Assembly: GCF_007741515.1 (NCBI RefSeq)
Contig: NZ_CP036263.1
Location: 3,023,178-3,087,177 of the forward strand
DNA from: Adhaeretor mobilis
GTDB taxonomy: Bacteria > Planctomycetota > Planctomycetia > Pirellulales > Lacipirellulaceae
Length of the DNA: 64,000 nt
Direction of reading: 5' to 3'
Under the pieces are notes generated by a model that was given only the letters and a program-made list of their open reading frames with translations, had not been told where the DNA came from and did not search any database. Made by a program: the position numbers and the translations under genes. Below, piece after piece: positions 4,907-33,312 of this stretch. Numbering within the stretch: position 1 is the stretch's first letter; each line of letters begins with the position of its first letter.

Positions 4907-6085
4907 TTGAGGTCGCAACTTGCGAGATTTCGCCGATCAGCGAGAATCAAAACCAACCCCAGGTGTTCAGCTAGATTGTCACAATGGAATCCTCGGTCTT
5001 TTCGCACGAAAGTCTCATGTATGAACAGCTGGTTCTCGCCGTTGCTGTACCTATCGGCAAGCTCATCAGAGGGTGATTTGCGTCGCCACATCGAGTTCTT
5101 GAAGGCAGAGAATGAGATGCTTCGACGGCGCGTGCCCAAGCAACGGATTTTCCTGGATAAGGGAGAGCGAGAGCGACTGATGAAGCTGGGGAAAGCCATT
5201 GGCCCTGGAGTCCTGAAACTAATTAAGATTGTCCATCCCCGAACCCACCAGCGATTGTACCAATGGCAAAGGGATGTGAAACCAGCCAAGCGAATGGGCC
5301 GAACAAAGACTGTAGAGTCGGTTCGACAGCTGGTTATCAGAATCGCCAGAGAAACTGGCTGGGGCTACGGCCGCATCGTGGGAGAATTACGAAAACTAAG
5401 AATACATTGTGTTGGTCGCACAACGGTGAGAACAATACTGAAAGAGGAGGGCGTCAATCCTAGCCCCAAACGGGGCAAGGGCACCTGGGACGAGTTTGTG
5501 AAGATCCACGCGGACACTCTGTGGCAAGTCGATTTCTTCAGCAAGAAGGTCGTCACCAAGACGGGCTTGAAGCAAGCGTTCGTGTTGGCGTTCCTGCACG
5601 TGTAGTCACGGCGGGTAATCTGCTCTCCTGCGACATTTAACCCAATATCCGAATGGATGGTTTCCCAAGCAGAGGCACTGATTCAGCAGGCAGATGCTGC
5701 TAGCCTGCCGATCCGATACTTGATTCGAGATCGTGATGGGTGTTACTCACGTGAGTTCGACGAGGTGTTTGAAAAAGCAGACGTCTTAGTCGAGCCCACC
5801 GCACCCCGAGCACCCAATCAGAATGCCTACATCGAACGTTGGATTGGTTCGTTAAAGTATGAATGCCTGAATCGGTTTATTACCTTCGGGCTTAGGCACC
5901 TCGACTACATCGTGGGCGAATACGCATCCTTCTACAACGAACTCAGGCCACATCAGCGGAAAGATAACCGCCCACTCACTGGCTCTTGGCTAGCAGTTGA
6001 TGAACCGCTCATTCAAGAAAGCGATATCGTCTGCGAAACACGCCTAGGCGGTGTGCTCAAGAATTACGAACGGATGGCTGCTTAA
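4907..6085 (+). mobile_element. degraded IS (IS3/IS481-like) transposase, split into two ORFs (4907..5605 and 5657..6085) by a frameshift or stop
   Basis: zipper EFLKAENEMLRRR, HTH_21-like GRTTVRTILKEEG, LWQVDFF (W-D motif), then rve-core DRDGCYS ... NQNAYIERWIGSLKYECL (the D..D..E acidic residues of the DDE motif) in a second frame. Confidence 0.55.
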
Positions 6086-6207: not shown

Positions 6208-7407
6208 TCAAGTTAGCGTAGCCGTCTTGATGCGTGTCGCCAGCGACTGCAAGTCAGTCCCCCTAAGCGCGCCTTCCACCAGCTCAGGCAATTTCTGCGG
6301 CGTGCAGCCAAAGCAGGGAATTCCCAGACTAGCTAGCTTTTTAGCTAGCCCTTCGTCGTAACTGGGAATGCCACTATCAGACAGGGCGAGAAGGCACAGC
6401 ACACGAACTCCGGATTCGACCATCTCACTCAGCCGACGCACTAACTGCGCTTCGTTGCCACCCTCGTATAGGTCGGTTAGAAGGATAAAGAGCGTCTCGC
6501 CTGGTTCGGTGATGAATTGCTGGCAATAGGCCACTGACTGATTGATATCCGTACCGCCTCCCAGTTGAACTCCGAACAACATATCGACCGGGTCATCGCC
6601 ACATTGTTCGGTTAAATCGACTACCTCAGTATCGAACGCCACGACATGCGTCTTAAGCGCTGGCAGGCTGGCGAAGATTGAGCCAACCACCGCGCCGTAG
6701 ACAACCGATTCAGCCATTGAACCACTTTGATCCATGTCGACAATGACCGTCCAATTGTTCGTGCGCTGGGCTCTTGAATAGAAATAGACGCGTTCGGGAA
6801 TCAAAAGCCCGAGTTCGGCGTTGTAATTCTTGAGATTGCGCCCGATTGTCCATTTCCAGTCGATGCTATTCACATGGGGAATTGGCGAGTGTTCGTTGCG
6901 GTTGAGTGCGCCAAGTACCGCCTGTCGTATTTTCTGTTCGAGCGAAAGCTTGATCTTGTCGACTACGGCCCGCACAACCATCCGAGCCGTCTCTTTTGTG
7001 CGTTCCGGGATTTGACCTTTTAGCGCCATCAGTGTGCCCACTAACTGGACATTCGGTTGGACATTCTTGAGCATCTCGGGCTCAAATAACAACTGCGTCA
7101 TTCCTTTACGCTCAATCGCGTCTTGTTGGATAACGGTGACGACATCTTCTGTGAAATATGTGCGGACGTCCCCTAGCCATTTTGCCAACCTAGGGGCCGA
7201 CTTCTCGAGACCGGCGCCCCGAGACGAAGATTGTTCCGCATCCGTTTCATCGTAAATCGCCGCAAGCGCTTCATCCATTAGCAGTTGATCGGCACTGAGT
7301 GCCAGCCCTCCCGAGCTGTAGTCGGAGAGTTGATCTTGAGAGTCCTTGCCTAGAATCAAACGCCAACGGCGAAGTTGAGCGTCATCGATCGCTTTTTCAT
7401 TCGTCAT
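6208..7407 (-). CDS. von Willebrand factor A (VWA) domain protein with MIDAS motif
   Basis: VIVDMDQSGSMAE (DxSGS MIDAS); last gene of the five-gene minus-strand operon; YehP-like. Confidence 0.7.
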   Translation of the reverse strand: MTNEKAIDDAQLRRWRLILGKDSQDQLSDYSSGGLALSADQLLMDEALAAIYDETDAEQSSSRGAGLEKSAPRLAKWLGDVRTYFTEDVVTVIQQDAIERKGMTQLLFEPEMLKNVQPNVQLVGTLMALKGQIPERTKETARMVVRAVVDKIKLSLEQKIRQAVLGALNRNEHSPIPHVNSIDWKWTIGRNLKNYNAELGLLIPERVYFYSRAQRTNNWTVIVDMDQSGSMAESVVYGAVVGSIFASLPALKTHVVAFDTEVVDLTEQCGDDPVDMLFGVQLGGGTDINQSVAYCQQFITEPGETLFILLTDLYEGGNEAQLVRRLSEMVESGVRVLCLLALSDSGIPSYDEGLAKKLASLGIPCFGCTPQKLPELVEGALRGTDLQSLATRIKTATLT

Positions 7408-7445
7408 AACAATCGCCTGATTATTGATTTGCCGATGGTTAGAAC

Positions 7446-9827
7446 TCAGAGATCATCAAAATCAAACTCGTTCAAATCGTCGATGGCCTGTTCCTCATCC
7501 TCCAAAAGGGGTTGCGATAGCACTTCGCTGGTCAGGTCTCCACCGACTCCCCAACATTCGCCAAGATTCTCGGAGATCGATCGTTTCTCCTGCGGGCTGA
7601 AGCTGCCAAACGCTCTGCGCAGAAAAACCAACGCCCGTGAAAACTGTTCGTCGTCCAACGACTTGACGTAGTCAGCCAGTTGTTCCCATAAAACTTGGCG
7701 TGCCAGCAGAGCATAGCGATTCCTGCCGGAAAGGCCTTCAAACCATCCGGCTCCCAAGTCGGCTTCGATTCCAGGAGATAAACGACGCGAAACTTCGCGA
7801 CCGAGTTGCTCGTTAGTGATCTCGTTGCGTTCCAGCAATATTGCACAAGCGTAACCCGAAAGCAGCGGGTTGTGATCGTCAGCGTCTGAAAGGTTGTGTA
7901 ATTGCGCGATCCAAGCAGGTTCGTCAACTTGGTCGTGGTACTCCAAGGCGACTTTATTCAAAGCGTCCATGCCACTTGCGATTGGCTTTGCTGCGTCGTT
8001 GCCACAATTCGTCGCGTGGAACAGTCCCAGCGTGCCTTGTACGAATAGTGCTTCGATCAAGGGCACCAGAGGCTTCGGATCGAACTGACGCACATCCCCA
8101 TAGCGGACCACGACTGAAAGCTCCTGAGCCGCCTGCGCAATCGACGGAAACGCCGAAGTATCTGCTGACAGTCTTTGCAAAACGCCGCGTGCTTGGTCCA
8201 TCGCACGCATCATCCCGCATTCGCACGCTAAGCGGACCATTGAACCAGCGGCACCGATAGTCGTGCATTTTTCCAATTCTGTTTTGAACTTAAAAGCTGC
8301 TGCCAATTCGACGGTTTCTCCCAATAGAACGGCTTCGACAAGGCCGATTTCTGCTCCGGGCGTCCAGTGCAAGTGCCAACGTTCGCGCCAGGTGGTTGAT
8401 TCTTGCTTGTCTGGCTGAGGCGCGGCAAACGAAACCTCCAGCAAGGACAGACGATTAAGGAACGAAGATCGGCTCAAGTCCAGAAACGCGGCCGCTTCGG
8501 TTTTCGCCCGTCGGTTCTCGCGTAGATCGAGTGCCAGCTCTTGTTTCACGCCTTCGCGATATTTCGTTAGTTTCAGCCTCTCTAGTTCTCGGTCAAAATC
8601 TTCTTGTATTGAGGTCTGACTGACCCCCTTGGGTAATCGTCCGATGGCGGTACCGACTTCCACGCGTGCTAGCGACTCTTGCACGACCGAGCGTTCACCG
8701 TGTCCTATCAGTGTGATCGCCGCGTCCTGTAAGTCTCGCAAAGTGGGAGCTAATCCCTCCTTAAGGGCCGAAAGTGTTTTGGCTAAGCGCACGCCCTCGA
8801 TGACTTCCGCTGTCGAACGGGACGTTCCGGCCTTGCGGAGGTGTCGTGTAACCAACGAGAGGTAACGCGCCGGCAATTGTGACAATTCGTCGGCCTCAAT
8901 GGCCTCCCACAGCAACTCGAAGTAGGCGGGAGCGCGATTGCCAGCGCCGTAGCCCGACTGCGAGGAAAGCTTGAAATACGAGTAGGGCATCAACGTGAGC
9001 TTGCTCGCCAAAGAGCTGAGCGATTCCAGCTCGCTGTCTGTCATGGCAGGCTCGCCATCGTTTAGTACCGGCGCATGAAATGCGCCTACGATCGCCACGA
9101 CTTTCTCGGCAGGGCAACCGCTGGCAAGGACATGCTGAATCCGTCGCCGCATGTACGCTTCGCGAACAAGATTTTCCGCATGAAAAAAAGGTTCTCGACT
9201 GTCGCACTCACGGAGTCCCCGGCCGAATTCAAAGGAGGATTGACGATAGGCATCGGCAGCTCCGTTGTGCTCGAAATTCCGCTCCCAATAGCTTTCGTAG
9301 TCGTGTTCGCCGACTAGTTCCGCCATTCGTGCATACATCGCCCACGACGCCTCGGGAGCGCTGTTGTCGCCAAGCGTCTCGCCATTTGCATCTTCAACAG
9401 GAGGTTCGTCAGGCCTTCTTTCTCCTTCTTCCTCTTCGGCAGCTATCTCGGCCTGTAACTCTGCCAGCCGCCTTTCCTCCTCGTTTGCTTGCAACGCTAA
9501 GAATTTGTCGGATGGCAAGTCAAAGAATTCGACACGTGCCTTGTTTTCCTTAGACCAGGCAATTGCCTGATACTCGGGACTATACTTTGCCAACGGATAA
9601 ACGAGCGTACGAACCGGCACTTCTTGGGTATATGCAAGAATTGCAATTGGCGGCTGCGTTCCCTTGCGAACGATGTCCGAGATCAAGTAGGTCGCATCCT
9701 CCAAGCCTTCCACCAACACGACCCGAGGTTGCACTTCGTCCAAGAACCGGCGCAGCTGCCAAGCTCCCATCGGTGACAGATGGCGAACTCCAAACGTTGG
9801 CACCATGGTTTCTGTCGTTTTAGGCAT
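7446..9827 (-). CDS. large uncharacterised protein (793 aa), YehM/DUF5682-like by position and size
   Basis: no catalytic motif recognised; acidic Glu/Asp-rich segment in the middle; translationally coupled (overlaps the upstream ATPase gene by 8 nt). Confidence 0.45.
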   Translation of the reverse strand: MPKTTETMVPTFGVRHLSPMGAWQLRRFLDEVQPRVVLVEGLEDATYLISDIVRKGTQPPIAILAYTQEVPVRTLVYPLAKYSPEYQAIAWSKENKARVEFFDLPSDKFLALQANEEERRLAELQAEIAAEEEEGERRPDEPPVEDANGETLGDNSAPEASWAMYARMAELVGEHDYESYWERNFEHNGAADAYRQSSFEFGRGLRECDSREPFFHAENLVREAYMRRRIQHVLASGCPAEKVVAIVGAFHAPVLNDGEPAMTDSELESLSSLASKLTLMPYSYFKLSSQSGYGAGNRAPAYFELLWEAIEADELSQLPARYLSLVTRHLRKAGTSRSTAEVIEGVRLAKTLSALKEGLAPTLRDLQDAAITLIGHGERSVVQESLARVEVGTAIGRLPKGVSQTSIQEDFDRELERLKLTKYREGVKQELALDLRENRRAKTEAAAFLDLSRSSFLNRLSLLEVSFAAPQPDKQESTTWRERWHLHWTPGAEIGLVEAVLLGETVELAAAFKFKTELEKCTTIGAAGSMVRLACECGMMRAMDQARGVLQRLSADTSAFPSIAQAAQELSVVVRYGDVRQFDPKPLVPLIEALFVQGTLGLFHATNCGNDAAKPIASGMDALNKVALEYHDQVDEPAWIAQLHNLSDADDHNPLLSGYACAILLERNEITNEQLGREVSRRLSPGIEADLGAGWFEGLSGRNRYALLARQVLWEQLADYVKSLDDEQFSRALVFLRRAFGSFSPQEKRSISENLGECWGVGGDLTSEVLSQPLLEDEEQAIDDLNEFDFDDL

Positions 9828-10941
9828 TCTGGTCCGAACAGGCGTTGAACAGTGGCCGCCAGCTCGCCCCTCGTTTTTTCATGACGTTTTTCAGATACTC
9901 AGACCAAACGACATGATCTTTTTCTTCGTCTTTTACAACTGAGCCCTGTAATGCAGCCGCGATATCTTCGTCGGTGATGGTCCCTGAGCCGAAGTTGCCG
10001 GCGAGCGCCATGCTGTTGGCTAGAAGCGAAATGGCTTCTGCTGTCGATAGTACACCGGATGGCGATTTCACTTTATTTTTGCCATCAAGGGTCTGCCCCG
10101 ATCGCAACTCGCGGAAGATGGTCACAACCTTTTCTACCGCATCCTCAGTGGGCACTTCAGCCTGGAGGTCAAGATTCGATGCTAGTTGCTCAACGCGGCT
10201 AGTCACAATTTGAATTTCTGTTTCGATGCTGGCCGGAGACGGAAGCACGACAAGATTGAAACGTCGCTTGAGCGCTGCCGACATGTCGTTGACTCCCCGA
10301 TCGCGGGTGTTAGCCGTTGCGATGACCGAAAAACCTTTTTGGGCGGGGATTTCTTTTTCGAGTTCGGGAAGCGAAAGTCGTTTCTCGGAAAGCAGCGAAA
10401 TCATCGCGTCCTGTACTTCCGAAGCACAACGCGTGATCTCTTCAAAACGAGCGAGTGATCCTTCTTCCATGGCGCGATAAACCGGACTTTTGATCAATGC
10501 CTGATCGCTGGGACCGCTGGCAATGAGCATCGCGTAGTTCCAGGTATATCGAATCTGCTCTTCGGTTGTGCCGGCCGTGCCCTGCACCACTTTTGTTGAG
10601 TCGCCGTTGATGGCAGCTGCCAGGTGCTCTGACAGCCAGGACTTGGCGGTCCCTGGCTCGCCAATCAAAAGCAATGCGCGATCGGTGATCAAGGTAGAAA
10701 TTGCGATCTCGACCAAACGCTGATTGCCGACGTACTTGGGAGTAATCGCCAACTTGCCCGAATTGCCACCGCAGATGTAAGTCAATACCGCCCGAGGCGA
10801 CATACGCCAACCCGTGGGCTTTTCGTGCATATCGTTCTTGATTAGCTCGTCGATTTCTTCTGCGAAAAGGATCTCAGCAGGTTGCCGAAGCATTTTGCCA
10901 TTGGATTCTTGAGTCATCTTCGGAGCCTGTTTTTTTGCCAT
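9820..10941 (-). CDS. AAA+ ATPase, MoxR/AAA_5-like (YehL-like)
   Basis: Walker A LLIGEPGTAKS, Walker B/sensor region ATANTRDRGVNDMSAALKRRF. Confidence 0.7.
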   Translation of the reverse strand: MAKKQAPKMTQESNGKMLRQPAEILFAEEIDELIKNDMHEKPTGWRMSPRAVLTYICGGNSGKLAITPKYVGNQRLVEIAISTLITDRALLLIGEPGTAKSWLSEHLAAAINGDSTKVVQGTAGTTEEQIRYTWNYAMLIASGPSDQALIKSPVYRAMEEGSLARFEEITRCASEVQDAMISLLSEKRLSLPELEKEIPAQKGFSVIATANTRDRGVNDMSAALKRRFNLVVLPSPASIETEIQIVTSRVEQLASNLDLQAEVPTEDAVEKVVTIFRELRSGQTLDGKNKVKSPSGVLSTAEAISLLANSMALAGNFGSGTITDEDIAAALQGSVVKDEEKDHVVWSEYLKNVMKKRGASWRPLFNACSDQNA

Positions 10942-10948
10942 GGTACAG

Positions 10949-12760
10949 TTACCTTGTTTTCTGCTTCAGTGTGACCAGATGCGGCGTGATTTGGTCGATA
11001 TACGATTCAGACAATCCCTCAAGAGCAGATTCTACCTTCTTGGTTGCTGATTTAGGGAGTTTAGAGATTAGCGGGAACAACCAATAAGAGATTCCGTAGT
11101 GGTTGTTCTTCTTTTTAGACGCAGCGATGATCGTTGCCAGCAAAAGTTCGGGGGCTTGTTTGTGCTTCATCTCGATCAACTTTTCAAGGGCGTGCGTACT
11201 TTCCCAGCCATCGAGCTTATGGCCTCGGCTTTGCACCCAGCTGACCAGAAAGTCGCCCGCTGTTTTGTGCTTGGCATTGGCCAAACGGCAAACAACCTCC
11301 ACGTCTTCTGTCTCGATGGCCAAATCAATCCAGCGTGGGTCCCACTTGGCCTTACTAAGCATTTCTTTGTTGACATCGCCGCCATGGCATTCCAGGAAAT
11401 ATCCATATGTGTGGTCACGCGAATCACTCCCCAACAGAGAAGCAACGATTTCTCGCTGACCTTTCTTTGATCTGCGGCTGCCTTTAGTGCCATCGTAGTA
11501 CCCTCGCAACTCATCGAATGCCTGCTTCGGCGTACGCGTGACCAACACTGCGACCACCGACGATAGGAAAGCATTCGTAGCTTCGTCATCCAATGTTGAG
11601 TGGATGTCGGCAACCACCAGTAACAGCTTCTTGTCGCCAGTAGATACCATCACTGAACAGAGGCTTTCCAATAGGGTATCGCCACCGATAATTGCGGTGA
11701 GCTTTTCACGACCGTTGAACAGGCCTAGTAGCATGTCACTCGTCGATTTCTCATTTCGGCCATAAAAACAGCTTATTAGAACGTCTAATCGATTGACGAG
11801 GCTTTCACGTTTCTTTTTTTCTTTCGCCTTGAGCAGATCGTCGAAACAGGTCTTAGTTTGCTGCTGGGCGATCGCCAATATTCTGGTGTTGCGGGTTTCA
11901 CGGATTGGTTTCACAACCAAATCAACATCCCCGCTGCAAATCGCCTGTTCAAATACGTTGTCGACCTCCTTGCCCTTGAAAAGCGACAGGCGATCCAAGA
12001 CTACACGACGAACGTCCTTCGCTTTCGCTTTTATTTGATCAAGCAAATGCGGCAGATCTTTCTTCGAGTCACCCAAGCAACAGAGTGCTGCAATCTTCAT
12101 TTCCTTCGAGCCCGAGTCGAAGGCTGCTTCGACAATTGGTCGCGCAGTCTCGGGATCGAGTTGATACAGTAACTTCAGACGCCTCACGTTACCCGCTCTG
12201 CCCTTGATGTCGATTCGATCTTTGATTTCGGGGAGAATTGCTGGCCCATACTTGGGCAGAACCTTCTCTGCGACAAAATCCGCAAGCTCGGGGTAAACGT
12301 CGTTCAAGGCGTTGATGGCTGGATTGATTAGCCTCAAGTCATTGAAAGCACCGCGATCAAACGCTTCTTGCACTGTTTCCAATCGACCAGAACCCGTGGT
12401 GCTTAGGGCTTCGAGCAGTGGTTTCAGTACGCGAGACGAAACCTGTGTTGTGCTGATTCCTACTTCCAGGGACTCGATCGCTTTGGTCGCTCCCTTCACA
12501 CCCGTGGCGCCCTGCGTATACAAGATCGCCAGCAGGAGTGAGCTCAAATCTAATAATGCTTGAGGCGAATTCTTTTCATCGCCGTCAACCAGTTGCTCGA
12601 TGCTGTCAGCGACTTTCGTGAACACCGGAGCCTTATTGCTCGACTTTCGCAAAGGTTCTACCAGCTTCTTCAGGCGAAAATCGCCAACCGCCAAATTGCT
12701 GCCGGCAATCGTGAGGCGTCGCGTTTCGTCGTAAACCTGATTCAGTACTGCAATGCTCAT
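10949..12760 (-). CDS. hypothetical protein (603 aa), operon member
   Basis: ORF only; lies between the SWIM and ATPase genes on the same strand with 8-57 nt spacers. Confidence 0.4.
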   Translation of the reverse strand: MSIAVLNQVYDETRRLTIAGSNLAVGDFRLKKLVEPLRKSSNKAPVFTKVADSIEQLVDGDEKNSPQALLDLSSLLLAILYTQGATGVKGATKAIESLEVGISTTQVSSRVLKPLLEALSTTGSGRLETVQEAFDRGAFNDLRLINPAINALNDVYPELADFVAEKVLPKYGPAILPEIKDRIDIKGRAGNVRRLKLLYQLDPETARPIVEAAFDSGSKEMKIAALCCLGDSKKDLPHLLDQIKAKAKDVRRVVLDRLSLFKGKEVDNVFEQAICSGDVDLVVKPIRETRNTRILAIAQQQTKTCFDDLLKAKEKKKRESLVNRLDVLISCFYGRNEKSTSDMLLGLFNGREKLTAIIGGDTLLESLCSVMVSTGDKKLLLVVADIHSTLDDEATNAFLSSVVAVLVTRTPKQAFDELRGYYDGTKGSRRSKKGQREIVASLLGSDSRDHTYGYFLECHGGDVNKEMLSKAKWDPRWIDLAIETEDVEVVCRLANAKHKTAGDFLVSWVQSRGHKLDGWESTHALEKLIEMKHKQAPELLLATIIAASKKKNNHYGISYWLFPLISKLPKSATKKVESALEGLSESYIDQITPHLVTLKQKTR

Positions 12761-12817
12761 GGTTCTACTGTCTCTTATGGCCGTTCACCCATGCGGTGAT
12801 ATTCGTCACTGAAACTC

Positions 12818-14272
12818 TCACAATGTCAGTCGGTAAATCTGTGACTTGGTAATAATGCTCAGTGGTTTCACCTTGAGCGTGTGAGAATCGAGATCATGAT
12901 GAAATCTGGCAATCAAGGTCTGGTCTTTGTGCATTTCTTTTGGCAACAACCATAATAAGTGACAACTGGGCGGCTCTTCGGACAACCCAGACTCGGTAAA
13001 CGCAATTCGATCCCCTTGTGTATCTTCCACGACCAGCTTGTTACCAACAGTTGCTATTTGCGAATAACTCAGGGCCGCAATGGGGCGCTTGTTAGCCAGT
13101 GGCGACTTCAAATCACCTTTGATCTGTTTTACCAAAGCGGCAAAAGTCCTTTGGCCATGGCAGCGGATAGCCTGCAAGTCTTTGCCGTCAATTTGCCGTG
13201 TTGTTGCCGCATCCCAACGCACACGCGGATTCACTTTCCCTGGGTAGCGACACAGCTCTGGCACTTGTCTTACTTGGAAAAAGCTGTCCTCACTCTTGAT
13301 ATATTTTACCGCTTTATACGGGCGAAATGTCTGAGTTAACTGGATGACACCAGTTGCAAGATTCATCCAAACGCCCGTGTCAACGAACTCGCGCCGCGCC
13401 ACGTCGTCGTATGAATTAAATGCTAACTGAATGAGCTCGACGTTTGATTCGACGAGGCCCGCCGTCTTCAATTCGCTCAACTGCCACGCATGCCCCAACC
13501 ACTCCGCAATGGGCGTGTCTATTTCTGGAGCAAGTTCCGCGTCCGCCAGTCGCTCGGAGAGGTACTTGCGACCCTGTTTCACCAAGGCATTTAACTGAGT
13601 GAGTTGGGCCATCGCTTCGCTATAGACTCGCTCGCGATTCTTGGCGGATATTTCGGCATCGAAGTACCAGTCATCTTCGACAAACAACTTCGTGTAGTTG
13701 TGGAGTGCAGACTGTGCGCCGGGCAGGTATGCATTGCCGAGTTGCTTGGCTTGGTCTTCGATTTGCCGCGCGAGCTTGGCATTCATGTTGCCCATGCCGG
13801 CGCGGACTAGATCGTGCGTTAGCTGTTCGAGCAAATCAAGGCCTTTTAGCTTTGCGGCGATCTTCTTTTTGAGTGCCGCCTTGTTAATCTTCTTGGGCTT
13901 CGTAGCTTGCTCTTGTCGTTTCTGCACCCGCTGCTGCGCCTTGGCTCGTTTCTCTGCAATATCTTCGGGGATTCCTGCCGCTTTGAACTTTTTGCCGTCT
14001 GCATACGCGTACATCAAACCCAGACAGTGCTTGCAAGGAAATTGACGGCTCGGGCAGGAGCATCGGTAGACGGGCTTTGCAGGATCGAGGAAGTCACACG
14101 AACACACATAGTTGGATTGGCCACTCCCCGAGCACTCACCAAAGATTAGTGTGTCGTCTTTGCTTTTATGAAGTTCGACGAACTTGCCTTTTACCAACAA
14201 TCCGCGGCCATTCTTAATAGCGTTGCTGTTGGGAGCTTCTCCGTCGATAAAATCTTCATTGATCTCAATCAC
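12818..14272 (-). CDS. SWIM zinc-finger protein (YehQ-like)
   Basis: CxCx(n)CxH SWIM signature YVCSCDFLD...YRCSCPSRQFPCKHCLGLMY. Confidence 0.65.
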   Translation of the reverse strand: MIEINEDFIDGEAPNSNAIKNGRGLLVKGKFVELHKSKDDTLIFGECSGSGQSNYVCSCDFLDPAKPVYRCSCPSRQFPCKHCLGLMYAYADGKKFKAAGIPEDIAEKRAKAQQRVQKRQEQATKPKKINKAALKKKIAAKLKGLDLLEQLTHDLVRAGMGNMNAKLARQIEDQAKQLGNAYLPGAQSALHNYTKLFVEDDWYFDAEISAKNRERVYSEAMAQLTQLNALVKQGRKYLSERLADAELAPEIDTPIAEWLGHAWQLSELKTAGLVESNVELIQLAFNSYDDVARREFVDTGVWMNLATGVIQLTQTFRPYKAVKYIKSEDSFFQVRQVPELCRYPGKVNPRVRWDAATTRQIDGKDLQAIRCHGQRTFAALVKQIKGDLKSPLANKRPIAALSYSQIATVGNKLVVEDTQGDRIAFTESGLSEEPPSCHLLWLLPKEMHKDQTLIARFHHDLDSHTLKVKPLSIITKSQIYRLTL

Positions 14273-14502: not shown

Positions 14503-15636
14503 TCAAACACCCTTGTAAGTCAGCAATGGACTCAATTCTCGGATAACCCGAGTAAGGTCTCGCTGGGCTTTCATAACTTGCCTGATGTCCTTGTAAGCTG
14601 CCGGTGCCTCGTCACGCAGTTTCGTGGTCCGTCGATGGTCGTACCACAGTCCCCCAACCTGTCGAGCAAACTCTTTGCCACCAATTTTCTGTCGTGCCTC
14701 AGTGCGACTGAGCTGACGGCCTGCTCCATGCGAACAAGTCGTAAGGGCATCTCTGCAGCCCCTGCCCAGGGTATGGAAACTGGCTGCTCCCATTGAACCT
14801 GGAACAATCCCTGGTTCGTTTGCTATAGCAGACTGTGCTCCTTTCCGATGTATCCATCGCCATTCACCGTCGTGCACCTCGCGCTGCACATGATTGTGGT
14901 CGCAGTGAATTAGGGAATCCCAGTCTGCTTTGATACCAAATAGTGTGTCCAAGAGCTGAGTAACCGCTGCCATCATGGCAAGGCGATTCTCAGCAGCGTA
15001 CTTACGAGCCCATTGGACATCAGATAGGTAGGCTTGACCTTGCCCCTCAGCCGTATCTAGCCATTTGAGGCCAGATTCTCCAGTGTTAGCGCTTCTCATG
15101 TGACGTTCCATGACCGCTTGCCCGATTGCGCGTGAGCCGCTGTGGATCATCACCCAAAGTTGGCCGCCCTGATCAGACTGGAGTTCCAGGAAATGATTTC
15201 CACGCCCTAACGTCCCTAGCTGCACGCGACCCTCCCTGTCAGCGATTCGCTGCAATCGCGCATCACTTAGCTGCAAGATCTCTAAACTTACTGGAAGTTC
15301 GCGCAGCTGTTGATGCTTATTAGCAGGTACACACTCGTAAAGTCCAGCTAGTATCTTTGCCGCCGAATGTTCGTTATCGATGGCAGTTGCCTCAACATCG
15401 AAAGAGACCGCGGCCATGCCACACCCAAAATCACCACCTACAGCAGACGGGTAAACGAGATCTTTCGTAGCAACTACGGCGCCGATGCAGACATCTCTGG
15501 ATAGATGCACGTCAGGCATCAAGGCAACATGCTGAACATCGTCTGAACTGCGCAAGCGATCGACTGACCGTGACACCTCTCGTGAGAGAGGCTCCATTAG
15601 CCACGTTGTCAAAGGTGCTAAGTCAGCTTGTGTCAT
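14503..15636 (-). CDS. compact RtcB-family RNA ligase paralog (377 aa)
   Basis: MPDVHLS...GGDFGCGMAAV, HNHVQ, HRKGAQ, GSMGAASFHTLGRG, CSHGAGR: all RtcB metal and GMP-binding motifs present, but short. Confidence 0.75.
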   Translation of the reverse strand: MTQADLAPLTTWLMEPLSREVSRSVDRLRSSDDVQHVALMPDVHLSRDVCIGAVVATKDLVYPSAVGGDFGCGMAAVSFDVEATAIDNEHSAAKILAGLYECVPANKHQQLRELPVSLEILQLSDARLQRIADREGRVQLGTLGRGNHFLELQSDQGGQLWVMIHSGSRAIGQAVMERHMRSANTGESGLKWLDTAEGQGQAYLSDVQWARKYAAENRLAMMAAVTQLLDTLFGIKADWDSLIHCDHNHVQREVHDGEWRWIHRKGAQSAIANEPGIVPGSMGAASFHTLGRGCRDALTTCSHGAGRQLSRTEARQKIGGKEFARQVGGLWYDHRRTTKLRDEAPAAYKDIRQVMKAQRDLTRVIRELSPLLTYKGV

Positions 15637-16139
15637 TGCTGCACCTCGTTCGATTTTTCATTGCTGGTGCAATCAGGCCCAATAACGTTAAACACTAATG
15701 TAGGTGTTTTCTTGCGAGTGATACTGGCCGCAATCTCATAACGCAGCTGCCCATGCCGAACTGCCAATTGCTGTTCGATTGTGTCGCGATCAAAACCCTC
15801 GGGATCACAGTCTGCATAGAGAGTCACTAGTAGCCGGGATGCGTCCGGTGCAGGCACAACGCCAGACACGCGGAGTCCTCGGAGAACGTCGTCACTAATC
15901 TCGCCCGACAATACTTGGTCGAGAGTTTCCGCCACCTGGCGGCAAAGTTGCTTAGTCTTACGATCATCTTTCTTGTGGATACGACTTGCTTTGAAGAACT
16001 CACGAGGGTCGGTACCATCGTCTTCGTGGATTTCACCACAATGCGCAAGCATCTGCTCACGCGTACGCTTATCAAGCGGCATGTTTGTCTCGCTGATTAG
16101 AAATGTGGCTGCGCAACGATTGCGCAGACAGACTGACAA
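15633..16139 (-). CDS. RbfA-like (ribosome-binding factor A family) protein with N-terminal extension; overlaps the rtcB paralog by 4 nt
   Basis: pattern QLCRQVAETLDQVLSGEISDDVLRG.RVSGVVPAPDASRLLVTLYADCD...AVRHGQLRYEIAASITRKKTPTLVFNV parallels RbfA ([41 protein letters not shown]...[22 protein letters not shown]); true start may be an internal Met. Confidence 0.45.
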   Translation of the reverse strand: MSVCLRNRCAATFLISETNMPLDKRTREQMLAHCGEIHEDDGTDPREFFKASRIHKKDDRKTKQLCRQVAETLDQVLSGEISDDVLRGLRVSGVVPAPDASRLLVTLYADCDPEGFDRDTIEQQLAVRHGQLRYEIAASITRKKTPTLVFNVIGPDCTSNEKSNEVQQ

Positions 16140-16476: not shown

Positions 16477-17955
16477 ATGCTTGATGAACTCTACCGACCG
16501 CCATTGGCCCTGTTAACCGATCTCTATCAGCTGACGATGGCCTATGGCTATTGGAAATTAGGCCGCGCCGAAGAGGAGGCTGTCTTTCACCTGTTTTTCC
16601 GTAAACCGCCGTTTGAGGGAGGTTATGCGGTAGCCGCTGGTCTAGGGCCAGCGCTGGAGTATTTGCAAGCCTATCGGTTTAGCGAGTCTGACATCGAGTA
16701 TCTCGGTACGCTTACTGGTAACGATGGCGAGCCACTTTTTGAGCCTGAGTTTCTCGGCTACTTAGCAGATCTTCGGCTAACGGTAGACGTCGATGCTATG
16801 CCTGAGGGAACGGTAGCATTTGGGCAGGAGCCGCTGCTTCGTGTAAAGGGGCCAATCCTTCAGTGTCAGCTGCTAGAAACGCCGCTGCTGAATATCATCA
16901 ATTTCCAAACGCTCATAGCGACGAAGGCTTCGCGAATCAGCACTGCGGCTGCTGGTGAACCGATCCTCGAATTCGGTTTGCGACGTGCCCAAGGCATCGA
17001 TGGAGCGCTGGCAGCCAGCCGAGCGGCTTATGTCGGCGGATGTGCAGCAACATCAAACGTTCTCGCCGGGAAGTTGTACGGCATTCCAGTGAAGGGAACC
17101 CATGCCCACAGTTGGGTCATGTCGTTCGACACAGAAGTCGATAGCTTTGAGCGTTACGCTGAGGTAATGCCCAATAACTGCGTCTTCCTGGTCGATACGT
17201 ACGACACCCTTGAGGGTGTTCAGCAGGCGGTCGAGGTGGGAAGAAAGTTACGCGAGCGTGGCCACGAAATGGTTGGAATTCGCCTAGATTCAGGAGATCT
17301 TGCCTACCTGAGTATAGAAGCTCGCAAGATTCTTGATGAAGCTGGTTTTCCGGAAGCAGCCATTGTTGCCTCGAATGATCTCGACGAGCATATCATCGAG
17401 AGCCTGAAGAATCAGAGAGCAAAGATCGCTGTCTGGGGAGTGGGCACGAAACTTGTTACGGCTTACGATCAACCCGCTTTGGGAGGTGTCTACAAGCTTG
17501 GAGCGTTACGAGATAACGACGGCAAATGGCATCCCAAGATAAAGCTTTCAGAGCAAGTGATTAAGACTTCGATCCCCGGTACTCTTCAGGTGAGGCGTTA
17601 CGAAGATGCTAACGGCCTCATCGGTGATATGATTTTTGACGAGACAAATGGCATCGATGACCGTGGGATCATTGTTGACGCGAAAGACCCAACGCGTCGC
17701 AAAAAGATCGCAAGCAACGCGAATGCTGTCGACCTACTTCGGCCTGCATTCCGTGCAGGCAAAGTAGTGGCAGAGCCGGAGAGCTTGGAAGTTATTCGCC
17801 AGCGAATGCACGAGAACATCGAGCGACTCCATCCAACGGTCCGTCGTTTTATGCATCCTCACGAGTACCCAGTTGGGCTGGATGTTGGGCTGCACGAACT
17901 GCGAGATGAAATGATACTGCAAGCTAGGCAAGTTCGACTGGAGATGGCCCCATGA
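16477..17955 (+). CDS. pncB: nicotinate phosphoribosyltransferase
   Basis: NAPRTase-family N-terminus [15 protein letters not shown] and overall architecture. Confidence 0.85.
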
Positions 17956-19928
17956 AGCTAATCCGCGTGGCTGCAGCCGCACTGAATCAAACGCCGCTTG
18001 ATTGGGACAACAATACGTCGAACATCCGAGCTGTGATTCACACAGCCCGCTTGCGCGGAGTCAGTGTACTTTGTCTGCCAGAGCTAAGCATTACTGGCTA
18101 TGGCTGTGAGGACGCTTTTTTCTCTCACGCCGTTCAGCAGTCAGCTCTAGATGTGCTGCAAGAGATTGCGCCACTTACGACGGGTTTGGCTGTCGCCGTT
18201 GGGCTGCCGCTGCTGCACGCCGGTGCTCTCTATAACACCTCTGCGCTCTTGGTCGATGGTCAGCTGAAGGGCTTCGCTGCGAAACAGCGACTTGCAGGCG
18301 ATGGCTTGCATTACGAACCTCGTTGGTTCAAAGCGTGGCCGGCAGATACCGTTGCCTCGATTGCTATCGACGGTGAGAAGTATGCAATCGGTGACCTGCT
18401 CTTTGATGTAGGCGGAATCCGAATCGGCTTTGAGATTTGCGAGGACGCTTGGGTTGCTGAGCGCCCTGCCAAAGACCATGCCAAGCTGGCTGCGGACATC
18501 ATTTTGAACCCTAGTGCTAGCCATTTTGCGTTCGACAAAGCGGCGGTTCGCCAGCGTCTAGTAATCGAAGCATCGCGTGCTTTCGGGGTCACTTATGTTT
18601 ACAGCAATCTGATTGGCAACGAGGCGGGGCGCATCATTTACGACGGGCAGACGCTTATCGGTACCCATGGCGAATTAGTTGCTCGCGGTTCACGATTTAG
18701 CTTTCAGCCGGTGACCGTTTGCGACGCGGTTGTTGATATCGATGCCACGAGAATGCGTCGAGTTCAGTCTAGCAGCTATGAGCCGCAAATCGACGTTGAT
18801 CAAAATCGCGTAGTTGACGTGAGCTATACGCTCGAAGCTGCAGACCCAGAGGCTGCCAACTTAGATTCAAACACTTGGGAACAAAGTAATTGCTTGCAAG
18901 AGGAAGAGTTCACGCGGGCGATCGCTCTAGGGCTCTACGATTATCTTCGCAAAAGCCACTCCAACGGTTTTGTGGTCTCGCTCAGTGGAGGCGCTGATTC
19001 AGCTGCTGTGACGTGCCTAGTGGCTCTTATGGTGAAGATTGGCTGCGAAGAAGTAGGGATAGGGGCCTTTGCAGGCAACACTGCATTGAGCAATCAGAAT
19101 GCACCGACACAGGAAGCACTAGTCCATCAATGGCTCACCACAGTCTACCAGGCAACCAAGAACAGCTCTAAGACAACAAAGAATGCTGCACGCATTCTAG
19201 CTGAGGCGGTCTCCGCACACCACTACGAACTCGACGTTGAGGACATTACGGAGAGCTATACGAAGAAGATTGAAGAGGCCTTGAGCCGCGAGCTTACTTG
19301 GGAGCAAGACGACATCACACTGCAGAATATTCAAGCTCGGGTCCGTGGACCTGGTGCCTGGATGCTAGCCAACATCAACAATGCGTTGTTGCTCGCCACT
19401 AGCAATCGCTCGGAAGCTGCCGTTGGCTATGCGACAATGGACGGAGATACTTGTGGAGGCATTAGCCCGATAGCTGGGATTGATAAAGCTTTTCTGCGCA
19501 AGTGGCTGCAGTGGGTAGAACGTGAAGGACCTCAAGGCATTGGGCCCATCCCTGAACTAGCTGCAGTCAATCAGTTGCAACCGACTGCCGAGTTGCGGCC
19601 GCAGGAAGCGGGCCAGATAGATGAAGAGGATCTCATGCCTTACGAACTGCTGGATGCGATTGAGCATCAGGCAATTGGAGAGAAACGATCCCCACAGGAG
19701 GTCCTCACGGCAGTTTCTGCCGAGTTCGACCAATACACTAGTGAGCAACTGGTAGTTTGGGTTCGCAGGTTTTTCCAGCTCTGGAGTCGAAATCAATGGA
19801 AACGGGAGCGGTACGCCCCTTCGTTTCATGTCGACGACAAGAATCTGGATCCAAAGACATGGTGCCGGTTCCCTATTCTCTCGGGCGGTTTCCAACGCGA
19901 GCTAGCAAATCTGGAATCGCCCAAATAG
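17952..19928 (+). CDS. nadE: glutamine-dependent NAD+ synthetase (CN-hydrolase + NAD synthetase domains)
   Basis: N-terminal nitrilase-like domain, C-terminal PP-loop SGGADSAAV; start overlaps the pncB stop (ATGA). Confidence 0.85.
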
Positions 19929-19980
19929 CTCGATCCTGCTGTACTTTCCCAAATATTAGCGGAGTAATCGTCAAAGCCCT

Positions 19981-20033
19981 TGACTTAGTGTAACTATCAC
20001 ACCATAATAGTGTCGATAGGACACTAAGTGACA
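19981..20033. promoter_or_regulatory. candidate autoregulatory NrtR half-sites upstream of nrtR
   Basis: TGACTTAGTGT (19981-19991) and ACACTAAGTGACA (20021-20033) inverted relative to each other; inner imperfect palindrome GTGTAACTATCACAC. Confidence 0.3.
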
Positions 20034-20055
20034 TTGATGTTATCTGGAGCTCAAT

Positions 20056-20745
20056 ATGGCCCATGCCTACGAATTCGCCCGCCCTGCCTTGACGGTTGAT
20101 ATCGTCGTGTTCGCACTCGACGAGGAAGACCTGCAAGTCATGCTCATTGAGCGTGACCTAAAGCCCTTCGAGGGCCAATGGGCATTGCCGGGCGGCTTTG
20201 TGAGAGTTGACGAAACTTTGGAAGAGGCAGCGCGACGTGAACTGGAAGAAGAGACGGGCCTAAAGGACATCTATTTGGAGCAACTTTACACGTTCGGCGA
20301 CATCAAGCGTGATCCGAGAGAACGTGTTGTCACCGTGACCTATTACGCCCTGGTCAACTTAGAGGGACATGACGTACAAGCCAGTACAGATGCTCGCAAT
20401 GCAGCTTGGTTTTCTATGAATGATCTGCCCAAGCTGGCGTTTGATCATAAAACGATTCTTCGTGCGGCCCACGAGCGATTAAGGGGCAAGGTGAGATACC
20501 AGCCTATTGGATTCGAACTATTGCCAGAGAAGTTTACTCTCCGACAAATGCAGCATCTCTACGAGGTAATTCTCGATCGCGAATTGGACAAGCGGAACTT
20601 TCGCAAGAAGGTGCTCGGGATGGAGATTGTGAAAGAGACCAAAGAGATTGAGAAGGACGTCGCACACCGAGCAGCACGTCTCTACCGGTTCGATAAACGC
20701 AGATACGACAAACTTACCAAACAAGGTTTCAACTTCGAGATTTAG
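20056..20745 (+). CDS. nrtR: NrtR-like Nudix-related transcriptional regulator (Nudix domain + C-terminal winged HTH)
   Basis: Nudix box [24 protein letters not shown]; C-terminal [14 protein letters not shown]...NFRKKV; sits beside pncB-nadE as in described NrtR regulons. Confidence 0.65.
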
Positions 20746-20760
20746 TCCCCTAGAAGAATC

Positions 20761-21813
20761 ATGAACCGATATCCGCATATCCTTGGATGCCTACTCGGCA
20801 CAGCCTTAGGCGACGCCGTTGGGCTTAGGCGTGAGGGTCTTTCTCGAAGGCGCGCGGAGAGGATGTACGGTGGTACCCCTCTGGGACCAGACTTTATTCT
20901 TGGTCTCGGCTTTTGCAGTGATGATGCCGAACATACGCAAATGGTTGGCCGAGCGCTCGTGTTGTCAGCTGGGCATGTAGCAAAATTCGAGAAGGAGCTT
21001 AGTCGTCAGCTGAAGCGTTGGCTAGTAGCACTTCCCGCTGGCATTGGTTTGGCAACGTTGAGAGCTTGTATCAAGTTGCTATTGGGTTTTGGTCCAAAGC
21101 GGAGTGGCGTATTCAGTGCGGGCAACGGTCCCGCAATGCGTACGGCTCTAATCGGCGTCTGGGCAGAGTCTGACGACCAGCTCAAGGAGTTGGTTCGAAT
21201 CTGCACAAGGCTGACACACACCGACCCAAGAGCTGAAGAAGGTGCGTTACTTGTAGCCAAAGCAGCTCGACTGACAGCCAGCGGGCAATATGTCGAACCG
21301 ACTGAGTTCCTCAGAGATGCAGTAGGCGAGGTCGAGGGCGAAGAACTTCGTGAAAGCTTACAGATGGCAATTAAGGCGTTGGCTGCTAACAAGGCCCCGA
21401 AAGAGTTTGCTGATTCGCTTGGGTGGTCAGAAGGCGTGACTGGATATGTCAATCATTCGGTACCTGCTGCTTTGTACTGTTGGGCAGACTCGCCGAACGA
21501 CTTTCGACGCTGCGTGGAAAACGCCGTCCTCTTGGGCGGCGATACGGACAGTGTTGCAGCAATTGCTGGAGCCATTTGTGGAGCTAACGTTGGTAGCGAA
21601 AACTTGCCACCTGATTGGCTCATTAGCCTAGCTGAGTGGCCTCGCAGCAAAAGCTGGATGCGACAATTGGCTGAAGCGTTGAGCAATGAGGCCAAAGTAT
21701 GCGAGCTACCAAAGCCACCTGGAATGCGCTGGTTGGCGACCGTCCCAAGAAACTTCGTTTTTGCTGCAATCGTGTTGGTCATCGGGTTTAGGCGATTACT
21801 TCCACCGTATTAG
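20761..21813 (+). CDS. ADP-ribosylglycohydrolase family protein (DraG/ARH-like)
   Basis: ILGCLLGTALGDAVGL and GGDTDSVAAIAGAICGA binuclear-metal motifs. Confidence 0.75.
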   Translation: MNRYPHILGCLLGTALGDAVGLRREGLSRRRAERMYGGTPLGPDFILGLGFCSDDAEHTQMVGRALVLSAGHVAKFEKELSRQLKRWLVALPAGIGLATLRACIKLLLGFGPKRSGVFSAGNGPAMRTALIGVWAESDDQLKELVRICTRLTHTDPRAEEGALLVAKAARLTASGQYVEPTEFLRDAVGEVEGEELRESLQMAIKALAANKAPKEFADSLGWSEGVTGYVNHSVPAALYCWADSPNDFRRCVENAVLLGGDTDSVAAIAGAICGANVGSENLPPDWLISLAEWPRSKSWMRQLAEALSNEAKVCELPKPPGMRWLATVPRNFVFAAIVLVIGFRRLLPPY

Positions 21814-21823
21814 AGATTTGAGC

Positions 21824-22285
21824 ATGAATTACCTTGAAGCCCCTACTGAATATGATGCCGATGGCCGTGCGGTGTTCTTGGCTGGTGGAATCACGGATGC
21901 AGAAAACTGGCAATCAGATCTTATTGAATCACTGCAAGGTGTTGATGCGACTGTCCTCAATCCGAGGCGTAAAGAATTTCCTATGAATGACGAATCTGCT
22001 GGATTGCAGCAGATCGAATGGGAGCATCGGCACCTAGCAAAAGCAGACTTGATTGCTTTTTGGTTCCCTCCGCAAACCTTGTGTCCGATAGCGTTGTTTG
22101 AGCTGGGAGCTTGCTGTGCATCAAGCGTCCCACTGGTTGTCGGGACTTCTCCGGAGTATGCGAGAAGATTCGATGTCGTCACGCAACTTCGATTACTACG
22201 ACCAGAGGTGAATGTGCATGACAGCCTGGAAGAGCTGCAGCTTGCCATCATGGAGCACCCCTTGTTCGAGGAGTCTTTGCGATGA
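21824..22285 (+). CDS. nucleoside 2-deoxyribosyltransferase-like Rossmann protein (start reassigned to MNYLEAP)
   Basis: AVFLAGGI ... IEWEHRHLAKADLIAFWFPP ... ALFELGACCAS...PLVVG resembles the NDT-like/DUF4062-type fold; the ORF-track start at 21686 overlaps the ARH gene. Confidence 0.4.
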   Translation: MNYLEAPTEYDADGRAVFLAGGITDAENWQSDLIESLQGVDATVLNPRRKEFPMNDESAGLQQIEWEHRHLAKADLIAFWFPPQTLCPIALFELGACCASSVPLVVGTSPEYARRFDVVTQLRLLRPEVNVHDSLEELQLAIMEHPLFEESLR

Positions 22286-22878
22286 AAGCCTTGCTACTGA
22301 TCGACATCCAAAATGATTTCCTGCCGGGTGGTGCGCTAGCAGTAGCCAATGGCAACGAAGTTGTGCCAATCGCAAATAGATTAATGGCCGATTACGACCT
22401 CGTCGTAGCGACGCAGGACTGGCATCCGGAAGGCCATGGCTCATTTGCAAGCCAGCACCCAGATCACGATGTTGGCGAGATTGTGACCCTAAATGGACTC
22501 GATCAAATCCTATGGCCCGATCACTGTGTCCAAGGAACTTCTGGAGCTGAATTTGCAAGAGAACTGAACACAGCAGGCATAGACCATGTCATTCAAAAAG
22601 GAACCGACAGAAACATCGATAGCTACAGCGGATTCTTCGATAACGCTCGTCGTAAGGCGACGGGTATGGAGACCTACCTACGTGAGCAGCAGGTTGATGA
22701 AGTCCATGTTGTGGGCCTCGCAACGGACTACTGCGTGAAGTTTACCGCACTGGATGCAGTCGACCTAGGATTCAAGACATCGATTCTGATGGATGGTGTA
22801 CGAGGAGTAGATTTGAACGAAGGTGACTGTCAAAGAGCAATAGATGAAATGAAGGCGGCTGGAATAGCCGTCGCATGA
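22282..22878 (+). CDS. pncA: nicotinamidase (isochorismatase family)
   Basis: LIDIQNDF (Asp), DWHPEGHGSF metal site, catalytic Cys in ATDYCVKFT. Confidence 0.7.
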   Translation: MKALLLIDIQNDFLPGGALAVANGNEVVPIANRLMADYDLVVATQDWHPEGHGSFASQHPDHDVGEIVTLNGLDQILWPDHCVQGTSGAEFARELNTAGIDHVIQKGTDRNIDSYSGFFDNARRKATGMETYLREQQVDEVHVVGLATDYCVKFTALDAVDLGFKTSILMDGVRGVDLNEGDCQRAIDEMKAAGIAVA

Positions 22879-22887
22879 AAGAGCAGA

Positions 22888-26185: not shown

Positions 26186-26197
26186 TGCGAGGTAGAG

Positions 26198-26743
26198 ATG
26201 GATGAAAAAAGCGAACTAACGACCGTATACGAAGGTCGACATCTGTCGATGGTCCGGAGGGGGCATTGGGAATTCGCAACGCGTAATACCAAGAAGCCCG
26301 CTGTTGGAATTGTCGCCATCACAGACCAAATGAATGTTGTTTTGGTTGAACAGTTTCGTCCACCGGTTGGGCGTAAGGTGGTAGAACTCCCTGCCGGGCT
26401 GGCTGGTGACATTCCAGGCTCGGAGAATGAAGCCCTTGTCGAAGCAGCTAAACGGGAATTGCTGGAAGAGTCCGGATATACAGCAAGTGAATGGACGGAC
26501 CTTGGAAGTGGTTACTCTTCCCCAGGGCTCACGGACGAGTCGATCGTGCTATTCCTGGCCAGGGGCTTAGAAAAGACTGGGCCAGGTGGCGGCGATGAGA
26601 GCGAAGACATTATTGTCCATGAAGTTCCATGGACGGGAGTGGTAGCGTGGCTGCAGCGGCGAGAAGCAAAGGCCGATCTAAAACTTCTTGCTGGATTATA
26701 TGCCGCCTCGCATGCACTAGACAGCACGAAAGGAGCAAACTAA
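26198..26743 (+). CDS. Nudix hydrolase (ADP-ribose pyrophosphatase-like)
   Basis: Nudix box ELPAGLAGDIPGSENEALVEAAKRELLEESG. Confidence 0.75.
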   Translation: MDEKSELTTVYEGRHLSMVRRGHWEFATRNTKKPAVGIVAITDQMNVVLVEQFRPPVGRKVVELPAGLAGDIPGSENEALVEAAKRELLEESGYTASEWTDLGSGYSSPGLTDESIVLFLARGLEKTGPGGGDESEDIIVHEVPWTGVVAWLQRREAKADLKLLAGLYAASHALDSTKGAN

Positions 26744-33303: not shown

Positions 33304-33312
33304 TTTCTTAAG

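Follow-up and report, generated by a model that had tools for sequence, protein, structure and literature searches.

What is the five-gene cluster that occupies positions 6208–14272 of the minus strand in a 64,000-nt stretch of the Adhaeretor mobilis genome (NZ_CP036263.1, positions 3,023,178 to 3,087,177; this whole stretch is hereafter called the window)? Its products are a SWIM protein, a helical-repeat protein, a MoxR-class AAA+ ATPase, a DUF5682 protein and a VWA protein, and the original prediction, made from the sequence, regarded it as a divergent variant of the E. coli yehL-yehM-yehP-yehQ cluster. Two questions arise. Does the locus really deviate from its relatives, and what kind of machine could these proteins form together? 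Judged by sequence, the locus is almost certainly a canonical and intact member of the YehL-class MoxR system, which is a widespread, known and uncharacterised kind of bacterial ATP-driven protein machine. The earlier interpretation is partly supported, being right in outline and wrong on the divergence.

The open reading frame (ORF) list holds all five minus-strand genes, tightly packed and exactly as they had been described, and Pfam assigns their domains. [quoted passage not shown] In this order, gaps of 57 nt and 7 nt are followed by an overlap of 8 nt between the ATPase and DUF5682 genes and by a last gap of 38 nt. The Pfam E-values are 1.3e-39 for AAA_5, 2.8e-47 for VWA_CoxE and 6.2e-145 for DUF5682, the last of which upholds the DUF5682-like label given earlier to the 793-aa protein; the SWIM match of the 484-aa protein (E = 3e-4, 20.6 bits) is barely over the cutoff of 19.6 bits. 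A scan of the locus proteins against NCBIfam gave nothing specific beyond Pfam. Neither of the two large proteins that had been left as unknowns falls into a characterised pathway on profile search, and the earlier finding stands in this respect. Each of the five proteins, the SWIM protein (484 aa from its GTG start) included, matches homologues along its whole length and equals them in size, so the five genes are intact. A candidate sigma-70-like promoter (TTGCCC-16-TACAAT, 14364–14337 on the minus strand) sits in the 230-nt gap between an upstream RtcB gene and the SWIM gene; it comes from a consensus scan only and is weak, as shuffled sequences held more such sites. No terminator signal above chance was found at the locus.

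The answer to the first question comes from the relatives. In a scan with a DUF5682 alignment, taking one genome per species, close relatives were present in at least 591 species, and the best 80 loci were compared with the window. According to ORF homology mapping, the order SWIM–HEAT–MoxR–DUF5682–VWA on one strand is found in at least 55 of these 80, which is essentially every locus with enough flanking sequence. It occurs in Planctomycetota, Verrucomicrobiota, Bacillota (e.g. Pseudobacteroides cellulosolvens), Desulfococcaceae and Myxococcales, and Fusobacterium vincentii shares it as well. The identity of the MoxR protein is 71–90% across phyla, and protein lengths are uniform over 44 loci. 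RefSeq annotation reads SWIM, DUF5691, AAA, DUF5682 and VWA in Deinococcus taeanensis, Methylosinus trichosporium and Rhizobium etli. These clusters have the identical order and component set, with a homologous SWIM protein and a related second gene, whereas their DUF5682 proteins are only 26–29% identical to that of the window, and the second protein of the window misses the DUF5691 cutoff. The clusters of Deinococcus and Hymenobacter contain a small extra ORF between the AAA and DUF5682 genes. A second architecture, DUF4132–AAA–DUF5682–VWA–SWIM, occurs in Bacillus mycoides and, with yehI counted, in E. coli. The divergence had been argued from an extra 603-aa gene and a different gene order. 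Because the SWIM–helical–MoxR–DUF5682–VWA order prevails, the window locus is the majority form rather than a divergent one; the comparison with E. coli had been incomplete. The 603-aa gene is not an extra either, for a DUF5691-like second slot is standard, and E. coli and Bacillus fill the partner slot with DUF4132 (YehI).

In the E. coli K-12 cluster, yehI-yehK-yehL-yehM-yehP-yehQ, the MoxR, DUF5682 and CoxE-type VWA genes are homologous to those of the window and stand in the same internal order, and each system also has a SWIM protein and a large partner made of helical repeats. The likeness proposed earlier holds by BLASTP for YehL (40% identity over the full length, E = 1e-84), YehM (24%, E = 3e-28) and YehP (36%, E = 8e-74). 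It does not extend to YehQ, a 614-aa protein with two SWIM motifs encoded at the 3′ end of the cluster, whose likeness to the window SWIM protein is limited to the zinc finger. The possibility that the 603-aa or the SWIM protein is a split YehQ was rejected, as both BLASTP and hhalign against YehQ align the SWIM motif only. The helical partner in E. coli is YehI, a 1210-aa DUF4132 protein encoded upstream of the ATPase, in contrast to the 603-aa DUF5691-like HEAT protein of the window. A kinship between these two was also rejected (hhalign not significant), and the sole link is indirect, in that the DUF4132 protein of B. mycoides shares HEAT_2 and a weak DUF5691-like segment. The E. coli cluster adjoins WGR-domain genes. 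DNA of yehLMPQ is present in 5,353 of the 5,426 complete E. coli genomes (98.7%), in single copy and on the chromosome. The window locus itself had no megablast match in 5,426 E. coli genomes, which ruled out E. coli as its source, and a database entry identical to it at 100% belongs to A. mobilis. A paper on the +1 frameshift-site predictor FSscan is said to discuss yehP (L001, 12968–14104) at length, naming it 39 times. That yehLMPQ has no assigned function, as stated earlier, agrees with our literature search, which found these genes only in gene lists, no functional study and not one paper on DUF5682, the yeh gene names returning mostly noise. One of seven MoxR subfamilies bears the name of YehL, of which no more is said than that it is the second MoxR protein of E. 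coli (PMC3893208).

The motor proteins carry their functional motifs intact. Across 76 homologues of the MoxR ATPase, the Walker A motif GEPGTAKS, the Walker-B-like RFEE, the sensor-1 residue N211 and the arginine fingers R226/R227 are 100% kept, and every MoxR member compared has E-E (RFEEI) in place of D-E as the acidic pair of Walker B. By sequence, the nearest solved relatives of this ATPase are the AAA_5 modules of Midasin. In the VWA protein, a helical N-terminal domain that bears the motif RWRLILG precedes the VWA domain, and nothing follows the latter. Its MIDAS is intact (D226-Q-S-G-S230, encoded at 6718–6732, plus D312), and D226-x-S-x-S230 together with D312 is invariant among 70 VWA homologues; both RWR/KL.LG and DxSGS are kept in the VWA proteins of Deinococcus, Bacillus, Hymenobacter, Rhizobium, Fusobacterium and E. 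coli. We predict that the VWA protein acts as an adaptor linking the motor to an effector or client. Among the compared loci (L002–L081), the VWA components sort into two separate classes by their identity to the window, 72–89% in 29 loci and 47–52% in 15 loci, unlike the other four components, which vary continuously. This sequence pattern suggests that VWA subtypes are swapped between otherwise similar operons.

The DUF5682 family comprises 3,648 clusters at 50% identity, nearly all of 730–830 aa, as found in a full-library profile search over 1.84 billion representatives. In the window protein an N-terminal domain (residues ~1–285, 8973–9827) is followed by a C-terminal α-helical repeat region (7449–8972) that closes with a conserved acidic tail, NEFDFDDL. 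The AlphaFold2 model (predicted local distance difference test score of 74, predicted template modelling score of 0.46) likewise shows an N-terminal α/β domain and then a long helical region. Residues invariant in the family, YehM included, are G13-V-R-H16, E40, E85, D103, R222-E223 and G248-A-F-H251, and both GxxH histidine motifs are kept in the DUF5682 proteins of Deinococcus, Methylosinus, Bacillus, Hymenobacter, Rhizobium, Fusobacterium, E. coli and Streptomyces. The TIKI superfamily, to which the structures of ChaN, HopBA1 and the Ere esterases are known to belong, has active members marked by a set of two histidines and two glutamates (PMC6254334); the two GxxH motifs and the acidic residues of the DUF5682 N-terminus would make up a set of this 2His/2Glu type. 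Foldseek gave no significant match for the DUF5682 model, and its highest-probability matches were to a TraB-family protein. No profile method bridged the family to TraB, ChaN or Ere at the level of sequence: a Pfam scan of the isolated N-terminus (E ≤ 10), a PDB profile search and hhalign against E. coli YbaP gave a single-motif match at best, and such a tie was rejected. Because of the invariant His/Glu residues and a possibly TraB/ChaN/HopBA1-like fold, we rather favour reading the N-terminus as a TIKI-type (TIKI/TraB/ChaN-fold) hydrolase domain. The protein as a whole is predicted to act as effector and scaffold. The acidic C-terminus (7446–7475, minus strand) is common to planctomycete, clostridial and Fusobacterium members, and a different hydrophobic motif takes its place in Deinococcus, Rhizobium and E. 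coli; the tail is a candidate ligand of the MIDAS or the pore that would be specific to the HEAT-type subfamily.

The SWIM protein is laid out as an N-terminal SWIM zinc finger (CxC...CxH, residues ~57–82), a basic linker, a helical bundle and a C-terminal β-rich domain; Pfam found no domains in its middle and C-terminal parts. It matches the SWIM protein of the Deinococcus operon with an hhalign probability of 99%, and the best match of the SWIM module is ZSWIM8, at a sequence identity of 8%. We predict it to be a receptor subunit. The 603-aa protein has no Pfam family over cutoff, DUF5691 included, and most of its 120 close homologues carry HEAT_2, with about ten having a precomputed DUF5691 match. 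Compared with four DUF5691 proteins, its family profile gave an hhalign probability of 86.9% (E = 4.2e-6 over 202 columns). By its profile similarity, the protein is a distant homologue of DUF5691, with marginal membership of the Pfam family proper because it lies below the cutoff. In 44 complete loci, the median identity to the window proteins is 76% for MoxR, 72% for VWA, 61% for DUF5682, 59% for SWIM and 37% for HEAT. The HEAT protein is therefore the fastest-evolving component, as would be expected of a scaffold or specificity subunit, which is the role predicted for it.

How are the five parts organised? Two kinds of natural fusion speak to this. In Hymenobacter, a 1009-aa protein joins a homologue of the SWIM protein (hhalign 98.7%, E = 2e-16) to a full DUF5691 domain (7e-100), and in Streptomyces atratus a 1255-aa protein joins DUF5682 to VWA_CoxE. 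Because of these SWIM::DUF5691 and DUF5682::VWA fusions, the system is likely to be built of two modules, a SWIM/helical receptor pair and a MoxR/DUF5682/VWA motor/effector trio. The S. atratus fusion lacks the ~155-residue N-terminal domain of free-standing VWA proteins, and we infer that this domain normally docks on DUF5682. On a plasmid of Hymenobacter sp. HDW8 (L086, 1793–2749), NUDIX and DUF4406 genes lie directly upstream of the SWIM::DUF5691 fusion, echoing the NUDIX and deoxyribosyltransferase-like genes near the window copy and the WGR genes beside E. coli yehI; these few cases hint at a possible ADP-ribose or nucleotide connection of the system.

As to the second question, the best explanation in our view, held at a little below even confidence, is that the locus encodes a canonical, self-contained cytoplasmic five-protein machine of the YehL class that is vertically maintained in many bacteria. 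The MoxR ATPase would form a hexameric ring, and the CoxE-type VWA protein would dock on or plug this ring and present its MIDAS, by analogy with NorQ/NorD, for which a model of MoxR/VWA coupling exists (PMC9976466), and with other MoxR/VWA couples. The MIDAS would bind an acidic residue of a partner, and the obligatory partner here would be DUF5682, so that the VWA protein would work directly with the putative TIKI/TraB-fold domain and its long helical scaffold. SWIM and the DUF5691-like HEAT protein would serve as a ZSWIM8-like receptor that chooses the client, either a protein or a ribonucleoprotein (RNP). ATP hydrolysis might then remodel the client or DUF5682, upon which the TIKI-like site would cleave or hydrolytically process the client. 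Such a receptor-guided, ATP-gated hydrolase, taken with all its steps, is possible and rather doubtful.

The surroundings of the locus in the window are rich in genes of RNA repair and NAD metabolism. Directly upstream on the same strand, a short RtcB gene (377 aa, 14503–15636) and a 168-aa ORF that matches RbfA (KH-like) below threshold overlap by 4 nt (the pair at 14503–16139, minus strand). This RtcB fails to reach the cutoff of either the PrfH-paired 'release_rtcB' model or PRK09588; the RbfA-like ORF is an unusual partner for RtcB, and the pair was not seen beside the five-gene system elsewhere. Next, on the opposite strand, are twelve genes of NAD salvage and ADP-ribose metabolism (16477–27924, plus strand): NAPRTase, NadE, NrtR, ARH, a nucleoside deoxyribosyltransferase-like protein, an isochorismatase/PncA-like protein, PARG, a further ARH, an unknown 499-aa protein, NUDIX, Macro and the RNA 2′-phosphotransferase Tpt1/KptA. 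The cluster resembles an island for NAD+ reconstitution and RNA 2′-phosphate repair. Two RlaP nucleotidyltransferase genes (28870–29634 and 30410–31426, minus strand) follow beside a DUF1559-like ORF and near a tRNA array, which a Band_7/SPFH gene (31449–32699, minus strand) adjoins; the genes at 28870–32699 correspond to the SPFH/RlaP type of RNA-repair module reportedly described by Burroughs and Aravind in 2016. The array (33038–37156, minus strand) has 30 tRNA genes for most amino acids, 24 of them also called by Rfam, with no Met or Phe tRNA called in it and with some odd members (His-atg, Ile-tat, a 91-nt 'Gln' and an 88-nt 'Ala').

A complete Rtc/Ro module (37786–45109) comes thereafter, made of RtcA (37786–38886), an unknown 237-aa ORF (38852–39565), RtcB (39543–41045), two YrlA Y-RNA-like genes (41070–41199 and 41219–41415) and Rsr/Ro60 with TROVE and vWA domains (41697–43310), all on the minus strand, together with RtcR on the plus strand (43526–45109). 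The tRNA array lies on the same strand as rsr-yrlA-yrlA-rtcB-(237 aa)-rtcA, directly downstream of it and upstream of Band_7 and RlaP, and might be a reserve set of tRNAs joined to the RtcR-controlled RNA-repair operon. Farther away is a copper cluster (49362–58926) with a CopA-type P-type ATPase carrying HMBD/YHS, an outer-membrane efflux protein and a multicopper oxidase; a TRASH/YHS-domain protein belongs to it on the other strand. On the other side of the locus, immediately downstream of the VWA gene, are IS481/IS3-type transposase fragments (4907–6085, plus strand), with HTH_32 and rve_3 in separate ORFs, which are probably a decayed insertion sequence (IS).

Could the five proteins serve another purpose than the self-contained machine? 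The main rival is a dedicated chaperone for maturation or cofactor insertion, like NorQ/NorD, CoxD/CoxE, CbbQ/CbbO or the CobS/CobT/CobN chelatase, and we consider it unlikely. MoxR/VWA would in that case remodel one unlinked client enzyme with SWIM and HEAT as client adaptors, and DUF5682 would be a ChaN-like binder of a ligand, metal or tetrapyrrole and not a hydrolase. The proposal is weakened because no co-located client gene was found in ~90 loci examined, whereas NorQD, CoxDE and CbbQO adjoin their clients, and because the GxxH histidines and acidic residues conserved throughout the family look like the active site of an enzyme. An anti-phage or conflict function, in which SWIM and HEAT would sense an invader and MoxR/VWA would release a protease-type DUF5682 effector as in the MoxR-vWA ternary systems, is quite improbable. 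The module is self-contained and stands in variable genomic neighbourhoods, IS fragments adjoin the window copy, toxin–antitoxin and IS genes adjoin the Methylosinus copy, and there is a weak bpMoxR match in Pfam (31.5 bits). The E. coli yeh region has also reportedly been listed among genes silenced by H-NS/Hha. The phyletic spread, too, is like that of the ternary systems, whose criteria the locus nevertheless fails, given its invariant architecture and lengths and the lack of effector displacement and of VWA-fused effectors (PMC7159879). The high conservation of MoxR across phyla and the near-universal, single-copy, chromosomal yehLMPQ of E. coli point the same way. The co-location with defence islands that had been suggested for checking was not seen: PADLOC-DB 2.0 gave no match among seven proteins tested, the five of the locus included, and the 84 nearest neighbours of 44+ loci yielded only scattered singleton matches, so that residence in defence islands was rejected. 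These 84 neighbours spread over 101 Pfam families with at most three members each, and in an all-against-all clustering of flanking ORFs no neighbour family occurred in more than 8 of the 80 loci, the most-shared ones being ordinary planctomycete genes (sulfatases, DUF1501 and WD40 proteins). Of 72,556 plasmid records, only 31 carry a relative, and most of these are chromids or chromosomes labelled wrongly; a single 'phage' contig, of 14 kb and unverified, carries one too. Carriage by plasmids or phages was rejected as a habit on account of this rarity. Because of the absent PADLOC matches and conserved neighbours, the lack of effector swapping and the presence of yehLMPQ in nearly all E. coli, a classical accessory defence system is equally improbable.

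The RNA-repair surroundings raise a further reading, namely that the system takes part in RNA repair or recovery from translation stress by remodelling or clearing damaged RNA–protein complexes upstream of ligases like RtcB or Pnkp/Hen1, with the window copy forming a seven-gene unit together with the RbfA-like protein and RtcB. The window copy does directly follow this pair on the same strand, and it lies on the margin of a 30-kb RNA-repair/NAD island. A SWIM module can recognise nucleic-acid-bound states, ZSWIM8 being an example, and Midasin remodels pre-ribosomes. RNA-repair genes were also met near other loci, namely Hen1-TPR-Pnkp directly downstream (L073), RtcB (L078) and Tpt1 (L020), and three Pseudobacteroides-type loci (L074, L076 and L081) have an ATP-dependent ligase-like gene directly upstream together with Band_7/flotillin. 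The ~870-aa proteins upstream of clostridial loci were rejected as Pnkp, since they are methyltransferase-domain or DUF5050 proteins and the true Pnkp/Hen1 pair is confined to L073. In total, about 5 independent cases in ~81 loci stand against about 1 expected, a crude estimate that ignores phylogeny. Against this, more than 90% of the loci, the closest relatives among them, have no RNA-repair neighbour, RtcB and the SWIM gene stand 230 nt apart with the promoter-like site between them, and a search of the proteins for RNA-binding domains turned up none. The RtcB adjacency itself is not conserved, for RtcB is near only one of the 80 other loci and is missing in the closest relatives (L002 and L003), and the seven-gene operon was rejected on this ground. 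We therefore regard the RNA-repair role as very improbable, and the linkage as a minority pattern that offers a slim lead and does not define the system. A more specific version, which we likewise think highly improbable, would be a quality-control device for damaged RNPs (stalled RNPs, ribosomes or tRNA complexes): the SWIM/HEAT pair, as a receptor like ZSWIM8, would sense the aberrant state, MoxR/VWA would extract in the manner of Midasin, the TIKI-like domain would cleave the protein part, and the freed RNA ends would pass to RtcB or Pnkp/Hen1. If true, it would explain why RNA-repair genes recur beside a minority of the loci and why the window copy stands at the edge of the RNA-repair/NAD/tRNA-array island.

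The window copy by itself adds nothing unusual, and its value is a sharper, testable model for the whole YehL class, centred on the self-contained machine, whose five parts are all obligatory and come in either of two interchangeable arrangements. No member of the YehL subfamily has a known function, even though the system is found in 98.7% of complete E. coli genomes and ~3,600 clusters from many phyla. The reading of the DUF5682 N-terminus as a TIKI-type site names residues to mutate in the largest DUF, and the relative in E. coli K-12 makes the predictions testable in a standard model organism.

Among known systems, the MoxR-vWA ternary conflict systems are alike in having a MoxR and vWA core with obligatory extra components and a possible peptidase effector, and in occurring in planctomycetes and actinobacteria (PMC7159879). 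The window system differs from them in having no VMAP, iSTAND or β-propeller, no variable vWA effector domains and no diversification; Pfam detected no VMAP, iSTAND, β-propeller or FtsH-type third component in the locus proteins, and the ternary-system paper of Kaur et al. 2020 mentions neither SWIM nor Yeh proteins (PMC7159879). The likeness to ZSWIM8, a eukaryotic cullin-RING substrate receptor, is structural only; the window system has no cullin-binding boxes and no ubiquitin system. With the TIKI superfamily (Tiki, TraB/PrgY, erythromycin esterases, RRSP, ChaN and HopBA1), DUF5682 has in common a set of two histidines and acidic residues; going by fold-level matches, it may also have the α/β fold with a core of parallel β-strands that TraB, ChaN, HopBA1, Ere and RRSP share. 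In contrast, its domain lies within a protein of 800 aa that has a large helical insertion and extension, and is not linked to the superfamily by sequence profile. Pairs of the NorQ/NorD type have the genes of a known client next to their own and lack DUF5682, SWIM and HEAT partners, whereas no client is linked to the window-type system. What NorQ/NorD, CoxD/CoxE, CbbQ/CbbO and RavA/ViaA share with the window system is a MoxR ring with a MIDAS-bearing VWA adaptor, and the VWA protein of the window belongs to the CoxE family.

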